Assembly: GCA_002633005.1 (NCBI GenBank)
Contig: NMRA01000317.1
Location: forward strand, 144,454 to 208,453
DNA: 64,000 nucleotides
Direction of reading: 5' to 3'
Source: Phoronis australis
Lineage: Eukaryota > Animalia > Phoronida
The position numbers and the translations under genes were made by a program. Below, piece by piece: positions 23,501 through 26,500 of this stretch; the stretch's first letter is position 1; every line of letters begins with the position of its first letter. The notes beneath the pieces are model-generated. The model was not told where the DNA came from. It made no database searches and saw only the letters and a list, made by a program, of their open reading frames with translations.

Positions 23501-26500
23501 ACTAATCGTGTCGACGGCTGCATGCGACTAAGGGATTGAGGTGAAATTAAGTTGAAGTGTTTGGATTTAATTAACTTTGTAATGACGTAGATGACATAAT
23601 TATCATCTTTCACAAACACTTAATGAAAGAGCTTGCATTGTTGTAGTTGTTGGCTCAAGCAGATCACTGGTTAGTTCCGGCTGGCAGCCTTTAAACATTG
23701 CGTGTCTGTTTATTCAGAAAATTGTAATTTGTTTTGCTGTGTTATTATTGTAGAACACGAACTCTGAAATCAATATGAAATGTTATAAAAAAGATATATT
23801 ATTGTACTTGATCAGGTTAACACCCACAACCTGCTTATCTCCCTCCCCAAAATTTTCAAATTCTCGCCTTCAAGCGCCCATATTTGGCTTGGTGGCCACC
23901 CCCAATCTATACAACCAAGACCTCCAGAAGACCCTATGTCTTTGTGAATGCCCGTCTCAAAATTTTAGCTCTCAAAAAGTACTGAAGTCAGTTAGCTTTG
24001 AATGACAATTTCTCAGTTACATCGGAATCATACGTTATTCGGTAGGCAAAATACCAATATTCTCCTGTTCTTTACTGAACAAGACATGGTTCTTTTGGCT
24101 CATTAGAATTCCAATATCATTGTGCTTCAAAAACGGTGAAAGCATTTGCGTTAGCAGCACCTGACCAGCTTGTTCCGTGCATACTGTTTGCATCAGAAAA
24201 TTTGATGATACACTACGTAGAAAGCCAAGTTTTTATACATACAAATTTTGTATAAAAATTCTATAGCTCGGCATTCACTCGTAATTGTCACAACTCCCAA
24301 AAATAACAATATTTTCTGTCTGGTTACGATGCAAAGAGTTTAAGAGTTAGGCGCTAGCATTCCCTGAAACTATCCAACAGATGGAATGAAATATCTGGTG
24401 CCTAAAACAACTTCAGCAAGCACTAAGCAACATGGTAAATACCAGTCATTGGATCAATCAATAAGCCGTGCCATGATCAGCAACAGTTGTCAATCAACAG
24501 TTGTCAATCATCAACTGTCAATCTATCACTGCTGACATTCAACAAAATGTGCACGTTCGAGGAGGCTAATCAAAATCAAACTTTCAATGCTCAACAAAAC
24601 ACGAACAAACTCTAACAGAACAATAGAAAATGCCAACACCGGTACGGACTAACCGTACGCCTCTCCACGGAGGATTTCTGGCGCTATATAATTCGGAGTG
24701 CCGCAAAATGTGTTTGTTTTCTCCCCTGGGTAGGTTTTTTCCTAAAAACCAAAAAATATGATAAGAAGACAAAACACACAACACAAAAACAGCAAGAGAA
24801 AAGATTTGGGAAAACACAAACACCGAAAGATCGAAGGACTTTGAGAAGGCAGAGACCAGAAATAGATTTTCTATTTTCCCAAAGCTATGAGGTTAGAAAA
24901 TCTGAACACTATAGCAAAGAAAGGACAGTATGATTGATATGTTAAATCTTCAGTTATTTCACACAGCATGATTGCCAATTGTTGTTTTTCATTTTTCAAG
25001 TGCAGTGAAAATTTTTCCAAATGTTGTTTCGTAAACTATACAGACCAACCAACACTAATAATGTTATTGAAGTTCAGAATTCTGTCAAAATAAAATTTTA
25101 CTTATCCGCTTTAATGCGTGTGAAACGGGTGAAAATCTACCATACACAAACAATTCACGACCAAGGAGTGTTCAGACTTCCTACTGTGAGATCACTTAGA
25201 TACTGTACCATAGTTTTCACCGCGTAACATTTCTGGGGCTATATAGTTGGGGGTGCCACAAAATGTGCCCGTCTTGTCGCCAGGTTGAAGGCCCTCCTAG
25301 AATACAGTGAATAAACGCATGCACATGGAGCTAACTACAACACGGATGAACAGTAGCAGTCACTAATTGCAATAGAGAGACAAAATTCTTTTTCTTTGGG
25401 ATGAAAGCCAACTGGCGTAAAATATGTTGTTGAATTTCAAAAACTACACTCGATGTACATTGACAGGGCTTTTACTGAAAATTCAAACAAGGTGCAAATT
25501 ACGTGTAATGTTCTCGTGTAGTAATCCTCCTTTTTGTTAATTCACGAAATTACAATAGATACACATTATTTTTATTTGCTAAGGATGTCAATATCATTTT
25601 TACTGCTAAATTATAAAAAATGTACCACTTTCGAACACTATTTCAATCGTTCAGCTTAAGAGCAAAAAAATGGGCTTGTCAAAAATGACTCACGAATTCA
25701 AACAGTGCTCAGATCTTTTCAAAAATGGCTCAGAGCTGTTTAAACATGACTCAGAGCTTTTCAAACATGGCTCAGAGCTTTTAAAACATGGCTCAGAGCT
25801 TTTCAAACGTGGCTCAGAGCTTTTAAAATATAGCTCTAGGTTTCCAAACATGGTGTAAAACATTTCAAACATGGTACAGCAGAACGTTCAAATACTCATA
25901 GGTAGAATACTGATGGATAAGAATAACGCATAAAATCTGTTGGAGCCAGAAGTTTGTAAGTCCATCATTGAGTGGCCGTCTTTTCATAATTCGATGATGG
26001 CAACTCGGAAATGCTTATCCTCAACTAAATCTGAACAAATGTACAAGTAACAGGTAGGTGTAACAAGGAACACACAGCGACCTACATGTCAAATATACTC
26101 CCATCATGCATCAGTCGTCACTCACCTTACACATCCCATAATCTGTTAGCTTGATATGTCCTTCAGAGTCCAGTAATACATTGTCTAACTTTAGATCCCG
26201 ATATATAATGCCTAGAAAAAAGTGGAATATTTTAAGGGAATTAACCTGGTAGTAAAATGGGTAAGTGTTTTTTTAATGTACGTTATGAAATAGTACACAG
26301 ACCCAGAAAGTGCCAAGAGGCATTGTATTTGGGCAAGATGACGTCACCAATTTTATGGACAACAAACTGAACACTGTAAACTGAACTGTTTCTACGTAAA
26401 CCAATTTGATTTGAAGGATTATGATAAACACATGAACAAAACTGAGCATGGAATTAACGATTCAAGTCTCACAAACCAGATACGTCGGCGCTAATTTTTA

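Follow-up and report, generated by a model that had tools for sequence, protein, structure and literature searches.

The alpha and beta forms of JNK arise from ancient duplicated, mutually exclusive exons in the kinase domain, which carry few substitutions and are reported to alter substrate affinity (passages of bioRxiv 10.1101/119891). Within the PKC family, passages of PMC8373072 describe the beta-I and beta-II exons of PRKCB, which are duplicated in tandem and have been traced into invertebrates; the passages of this source on PRKC genes name no event in atypical PKC (aPKC). The locus analyzed here, in the aPKC gene of Phoronis australis, is like JNK in its ancient duplicated exon pair inside the kinase domain with few substitutions, and like PRKCB in its family, its tandem arrangement and its presence in invertebrates. 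It differs from both in what is exchanged: in JNK the exchanged part is helix F with the loop after it, and in PRKCB the C-terminal arm of a conventional PKC, whereas the aPKC pair swaps the activation segment, that is the activation loop with its priming Thr and the P+1 loop.

Another alternatively spliced lophotrochozoan aPKC is that of Aplysia, where PKC Apl III reportedly has neural splice inserts in the hinge that affect cleavage. An activation-loop pair is not in the hinge but belongs to the catalytic domain, and the PKM fragment would therefore still contain it. Cell polarity depends centrally on aPKC, and so, through its PKM form, does the maintenance of memory in Aplysia (passages of PMC7104321 and PMC3517905).

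Isoforms of the present kind already exist in RefSeq. Those of Lingula (XP_013393560/561), Aplysia (NP_001191516 / XP_035828559) and other molluscs concern the same exon, are of equal length and differ there only; the molluscan and Lingula entries stem from automatic annotation under generic names, and the second exon of our locus is more diverged than any of them. An earlier note on this DNA had known of no description of such a pair for aPKC. RefSeq already contains it, but no account of an aPKC activation-loop exon pair was found among the titles and abstract openings of the papers searched, and the pair goes unmentioned in passages of bioRxiv 10.1101/620633, bioRxiv 10.1101/119891, PMC7104321, PMC8373072, PMC9282427, PMC3517905, PMC7969005, PMC5740500, PMC11996676 and PMC4998004. 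The pair is real, is expressed and occurs in many lineages. Its class is known and RefSeq contains it implicitly; as a phenomenon it appears undescribed. We consider it quite probable that the aPKC gene splices in either exon to give two kinases of equal length, with a pair that likely dates from an early lophotrochozoan ancestor and probably tunes the priming and holding of the loop, not recognition at the active site.

The exon pair and its gene

The window is the whole stretch of 64,000 nucleotides that was analyzed. The gene and the exons concerned lie in it as follows:

17516..42997, minus strand: whole aPKC coding span, 611 aa with either exon, from a homologue-guided exon chain in which the hinge exons are predicted
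26126..26211, minus strand: common upstream exon, with the C-terminal end DYGMCK (tblastn homologues and junction reads)
25209..25296, minus strand: exon A, the major copy, of canonical type (Asp408, Met424, human PKC-iota numbering; 26 reads in, 17 out and one contig)
24742..25208, minus strand: intron of 467 nt separating A and B, GT-AG (no A-B junction listed)
24654..24741, minus strand: exon B, the minor copy (Lys403, Thr404, Tyr405, Glu408, Asn411, Ile424, Ala429; 8 reads in, 8 out)
21246..21371, minus strand: common downstream exon, from helix F onward (tblastn homologues and junction reads)

Both exons were found where the earlier note had placed them, each of 88 nt, preceded by AG and followed by GT, entered in phase 0 and left in phase 1, free of stops and with the translations it gave. 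Its assignment of the activation-loop Thr and the P+1 loop to this segment was also borne out, the exon corresponding to human PKC-iota residues 402-430, including pT412. A degenerate pattern of acceptor plus exon matched only twice, at A and at B, and in 0/100 shuffles; no third copy was found in the window by tblastn with five aPKC homologues. A and B show the marks of homologous exons: they are tandem, homologous, of the same length and of the same splice phases. They are identical at 57/88 nt, and the many synonymous differences that had been claimed are there: 15 of the 29 codons differ silently, 7 are identical and 7 change the residue. The silent divergence between A and B is saturated (NG86 dS), so that raw pN and pS are given below instead. 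The residue changes had been placed just upstream of the phospho-Thr, which holds for five of the seven; the other two (424 and 429) lie after it.

PKC-iota accounts for all ten top PDB matches of each exon, and the homologue matches of the exons are aPKC. Exons for the N-terminal PB1, the basic pseudosubstrate and the single C1 are covered by tblastn of aPKC homologues, with a C1_1 match. The translation contains FEGFEY, in which Glu replaces the hydrophobic-motif phospho-site, and the RIPR docking motif, both of which are aPKC features (passages of PMC7104321 and PMC11996676). A quick tree of the protein without this exon places it among lophotrochozoans but not inside the mollusc, annelid or nemertean group, Lingula being nearest by path.

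Several further elements of the gene and its surroundings were observed. Small hinge exons are predicted at window 30447-30512 (66 nt) and 31462-31514 (minus strand), with TGCATG at 30410 and 30105, after the 66-nt exon; by analogy with the neural hinge inserts said to exist in Aplysia, they are candidate tissue-specific inserts. The first kinase exon has two AG acceptors 7 nt apart (window 28430-28437, minus strand), and in the predicted exon chain only the upstream one keeps the frame. Just downstream of aPKC and on the same strand lies a SKI-family exon (PF02437, PF08782; window 8387-9409, minus strand); human PRKCZ and SKI, and PRKCI and SKIL, are neighbours too, which suggests an ancient linkage. 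The window also holds exons of F-actin capping protein beta (48950-49318, plus strand) and Exo84 (57153-57389, minus strand).

Splicing of A or B

RNA evidence was drawn from three raw runs (X2, X3 and X4), of each of which 18-19% was sampled, and from one contig set (X1), all under the same species label. The table of joints at 97% likeness is complete with seven rows, a joint being listed from 3 reads with 2 starts per run. The earlier note had proposed looking for four junctions, and all four have reads, given here for X2, X3 and X4:

26126->25296, upstream exon to A: 7, 4 and 15 reads
25209->21371, A to downstream exon: 1, 6 and 10 reads
26126->24741, upstream exon to B: 0, 4 and 4 reads
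24654->21371, B to downstream exon: 2, 0 and 6 reads

The constitutive junction just upstream has 12, 5 and 22 reads, near the total for A and B (7, 8 and 19). The two remaining rows of the table stem from a repeat internal to an intron. Separately, intronic repeats at window 22410-22590 and 21680-21900 show heavy RNA read coverage on both strands, coming from other loci too. No joint from A to B, and none skipping both exons, is among the seven listed, rarer events under 3 reads per run falling below the listing threshold. Each exon is joined to both common neighbours, and the mutually exclusive use that had been suspected is thereby supported. B accounts for 16 of the 59 junction reads, that is 27% (Wilson 17-40%, reads taken as independent), and this share shows no difference across the three runs (chi-square p=0.86), which gives no direct sign of regulation.

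Only the A path is present in contig set X1, and X3 has no read from B to the downstream exon, as might be expected if B were an assembly artefact, a second haplotype or a dead copy. Against this stand the 16 junction reads over three runs, the saturated silent divergence of B from A and the tandem pairs on 18 other contigs described below. Moreover, no sequence difference is listed among the RNA reads inside exon B, so its unusual residues are read-supported. An artefactual or dead B is therefore close to negligible as an explanation.

Including both exons shifts the frame, as had been claimed: the chain with A and B meets a stop 369 nt before the last junction. Skipping both leads to a stop 385 nt before it, and either exon alone gives the full protein. 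The pair has the features of exclusivity that a frameshift with NMD would enforce, 88 nt not being divisible by 3 and the early stop lying well before the last junction; clusters of this type make up 60% of those in humans according to passages of PMC5740500. Given the frameshift, decay of transcripts with double inclusion is the simplest guard, and nonsense-mediated decay would back up A/B exclusivity everywhere.

Candidate elements that may contribute to the choice lie around both exons:

25318..25323, minus strand: TGCATG, candidate Rbfox-type repressor site 27 nt before exon A (motif only)
26105..26110, minus strand: TGCATG 16 nt after the upstream exon (motif only)
25167..25183, minus strand: 5' arm of a predicted 17-bp stem, beginning 25 nt past the exon A donor (pair probability 0.98)
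24894..24910, minus strand: 3' arm of the same stem, ending beside the candidate branch point
24892..24898, minus strand: TTCTAAC, predicted, candidate distal branch point of exon B, with its A at 24893
24742..24838, minus strand: AG-free pyrimidine-rich zone of 97 nt before exon B
24642..24658, minus strand: predicted 6-bp hairpin spanning the exon B donor (the window's own z-score 0.0)

Among the 18 acceptors tested, that of exon B has the longest AG-free zone (97 nt; the others 15-68) and the top pyrimidine share. TTCTAAC, 152 nt before this acceptor, is the only YTRAY-type match within 200 nt before B. A long AG-free zone with a candidate distal branch point before the second exon is a likeness to OGDH 4a/4b, with their distal branch points, and to Dscam exon 17 (passages of PMC7969005). 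For Dscam exon 17, the title of a reference in that source speaks of steric hindrance with RNA structure, and its passages put the steric limit from donor to branch point at about 50 nt. The aPKC locus differs in that the A donor and the candidate branch point are 315 nt apart linearly, that the branch point is predicted, and that the stem shows no conservation across 17 related loci. At this linear distance steric hindrance would need the predicted stem, whose formation would leave about 26 nt. In Phoronis australis the modelled stem may thus also bring the A donor beside the distal branch point of B. Its 17-bp duplex, found post hoc, was equalled in 14/500 shuffles; by z-score it ranks first in the 18 introns of the gene.

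Other models of exclusivity were considered. None of the flanking introns is of U12 type, as the donors GTGAGT, GTACAG and GTTAGT do not fit the U12 consensus. A docking-site/selector mechanism would call for conserved competing long-range pairings. Inverted repeats form 62 pairs in 2.8 kb; the single competing pair among them (I9, probability 0.01) is unsupported, and so is hairpin I6 (pair probability 0.31). The fold of the last 170 nt before B is unremarkable (z -1.34), and the whole fold from A to B has a z of -1.69 (1/20 shuffles). In related loci the hairpin at the B donor has a mean z of -0.98 in 28 B copies vs 0.0 in 29 A copies (p=0.003); raw energies show no difference between B and A copies (p=0.25), and two-sided changes in just 1/9 and 2/14 pairs amount to little covariation. 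This hairpin in relatives is a lead only.

In neurons and muscle, Rbfox acts as a repressor when its sites lie upstream of an exon. TGCATG, which we take to be the Rbfox-type motif, occurs in the aPKC gene 19 times in sense and 6 times on the other strand, vs 18 and 17 in the rest of the window. Among 17 related loci with two copies, GCATG precedes A in 5, all of one annelid-like group, and is absent in 12. The chances seem about evenly balanced that A/B choice is regulated by cell type, with an Rbfox-type protein that would repress A and leave B as the neural or muscle form.

Distribution and origin of the pair

The earlier note had called for a search for a conserved pair in relatives, and one was found both among proteins and in DNA. 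Among the 23 named lophotrochozoan groups whose cluster members were listed, database isoforms have two or three alternative forms of the exon in 15, and one form in 8. The single-form lophotrochozoans include Lineus and a chiton, and both cephalopod clusters are also single. Further isoform pairs come from Mytilus californianus and two Patella species. In 16 of the 24 equal-length pairs compared, the only differences, 4 to 8 in number, fall within this exon; those of the remaining 8 pairs (2 from insects, 6 cephalopod or unnamed) fall in other parts. In two annelid-like protein pairs the kinase domain is identical at 143/143 and 162/166 positions, and at 142/143 and 165/166, and this exon at just 22/29. 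Oysters have three forms of the activation-loop exon (P0187-P0189, P0195-P0198), and in a Pinctada gene model two copies follow one another. No second form was present per species in nine outgroup clusters (echinoderms, a hemichordate, chelicerates, fish), in 26 amphioxus proteins or in two insect clusters, where annotation gaps could hide one. Double matches in Cyprinodon and Popillia proteins proved to be identical or partial repeats, which were set aside as artefacts of annotation or assembly.

Some proteins depart from this scheme in other ways. Three cephalopod-like proteins (P0363, P0364, P0387) have one form, one residue shorter and B-like; their exon A may be lost or unsampled. Insect aPKC (Schistocerca, Anabrus; P0436/P0437, P0443/P0444) has equal-length isoforms with 14 differences near the turn motif of the C-terminal tail. 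This is a further aPKC exon pair, distinct from that of the activation loop; in the models of Homarus and Armadillidium both versions of this tail follow one another.

A metagenome scan yielded 63 loci, of which 21 loci on 18 contigs carry two tandem copies. Two of these 18 contigs have equal intron length and may be one sequence, and many of the loci are close kin, so that they are not independent. Of the 8 loci that span both flanking exons, 2 have two copies; the other 6, which are coral-like, fish-like and in one case unplaced, have a single copy. On annelid-like contigs Met424 precedes Ile424 in 16/16, and Asp408 precedes Glu408 in 15/16, as in the window; the two isoforms of Lingula have the same residue pairs. 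The two bivalve-like contigs have Ile then Val at 424. Copies in molluscs show other signatures (Asn411 with Val424), and with the three oyster forms this makes a copy-to-copy match with molluscs uncertain.

Selection on the second copies, a check likewise proposed at the outset, was measured in the larger annelid-like group, where 19 copies gave a pN of 0.011 vs a pS of 0.587. By this measure of their sequences, second copies in the annelid-like group are under strong purifying selection. Together with the isoforms and tandem contigs of relatives, this supports the view that the duplication is old and both copies are under selection.

Three observations on these loci stand by themselves. One annelid-like group has a conserved intronic block of about 20 nt directly after the B donor. 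CTAAC within 120 nt after the second copy is found in 15/19 B vs 0/21 A copies of one annelid-like group; the window lacks it. In locus L015 the start of exon A is partly duplicated, as is that of the downstream exon in L029 and L033.

The lineages that keep the pair likely diverged more than 500 million years ago. Two histories may account for its distribution. In one, the pair has a single ancient origin in an early lophotrochozoan ancestor, which is likely from the sequences compared. In the other, molluscs, annelids, brachiopods and the lineage of the window duplicated the exon independently and repeatedly, and the shared signatures reflect convergence at the few free positions. A tree of the exon peptide (29 columns) has only 1/40 inner branches well supported, and separate duplications were not rejected against a single origin (AU p=0.367). 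The unlike signatures of molluscs as against annelids and Lingula, and the oysters with three copies, also fit repeated duplication, and ACOX1 exon pairs evolved three times according to passages of PMC8373072. On the other side, the same two signatures recur in the same order in 16/16 annelid-like contigs and in the window; Met424 is rare (14/110 peptides); the flank of the B donor in the window is like annelid-like B flanks (12/500 shuffles as good; post hoc); and the outgroup clusters are without a second form. We hold repeated duplication unlikely and retain the single early origin.

What the swap may change in the kinase

In the structure of PKC-iota with Par3, this segment makes contact through pT412, T416, Y419 and the main chain; when T412 priming is lost, Par3 CR3 binds and inhibits more weakly (passages of PMC4998004). 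These substrate-contact residues (pT412, T416, Y419) are identical in A and B, from which we infer that the swap tunes priming or loop stability, not the recognised motif. Across 110 distinct peptides, Thr410, Thr412 to Ile420, Pro422 and Glu423 are invariant or nearly so, and 405, 409 and 411 are the most variable. It seems slightly more probable than otherwise that the swapped residues 403-411 would alter PDK1 priming, dephosphorylation or loop stability, and hence sensitivity to Par3-type inhibition.

Exon B of the window is unusual in this comparison. Lys403, Thr404 and Ala429 are each found in 0/110 other distinct peptides, and position 404 is otherwise always hydrophobic, which makes a dampened enzyme a real rival: B would be a poorly primed kinase in Phoronis australis, and the switch would set the level of aPKC activity and not its specificity. 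That B is the minor form by reads agrees with this. However, its phospho-Thr, P+1 loop and APE are intact, with 15/29 codons differing silently only, the B copies of relatives are under strong purifying selection, and Asn429 of exon A is equally unseen in other peptides. We regard the dampened form as fairly unlikely.

The Tyr of B had been thought new to this animal, which did not hold: the second form of Lingula also carries Tyr at this position, where Trp or Phe is found in many molluscan forms. A role for a bulky aromatic residue fits this pattern better than a new phospho-site. A tyrosine phosphorylation site at 405 that would give B its own regulation, seven residues before the phospho-Thr in the B forms of both the window and Lingula, is very unlikely, as position 405 is Trp in 19 of the 110 peptides and Tyr in 1, and annelid-like B copies mostly have Lys or Arg there.

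The activation loop is the only region of the kinase in which priming determines activity and inhibition by Par3 (passages of PMC4998004). A wider reading is possible, and we offer it tentatively as short of probable: a single duplication in the lophotrochozoan ancestor would have given snails, clams, annelids and lophophorates a switch in the aPKC loop, with B as an Rbfox-selected neural form; the Aplysia memory kinase PKM Apl III would then come in two catalytic forms, the curated and cloned one being A alone (NP_001191516). Where such a switch is conserved, a construct, phospho-antibody or knock-down used in molluscs or annelids may reach only one of the two or three catalytic forms. The pair also provides a natural experiment, in which kinases of equal length differ at just 4 to 8 loop residues.
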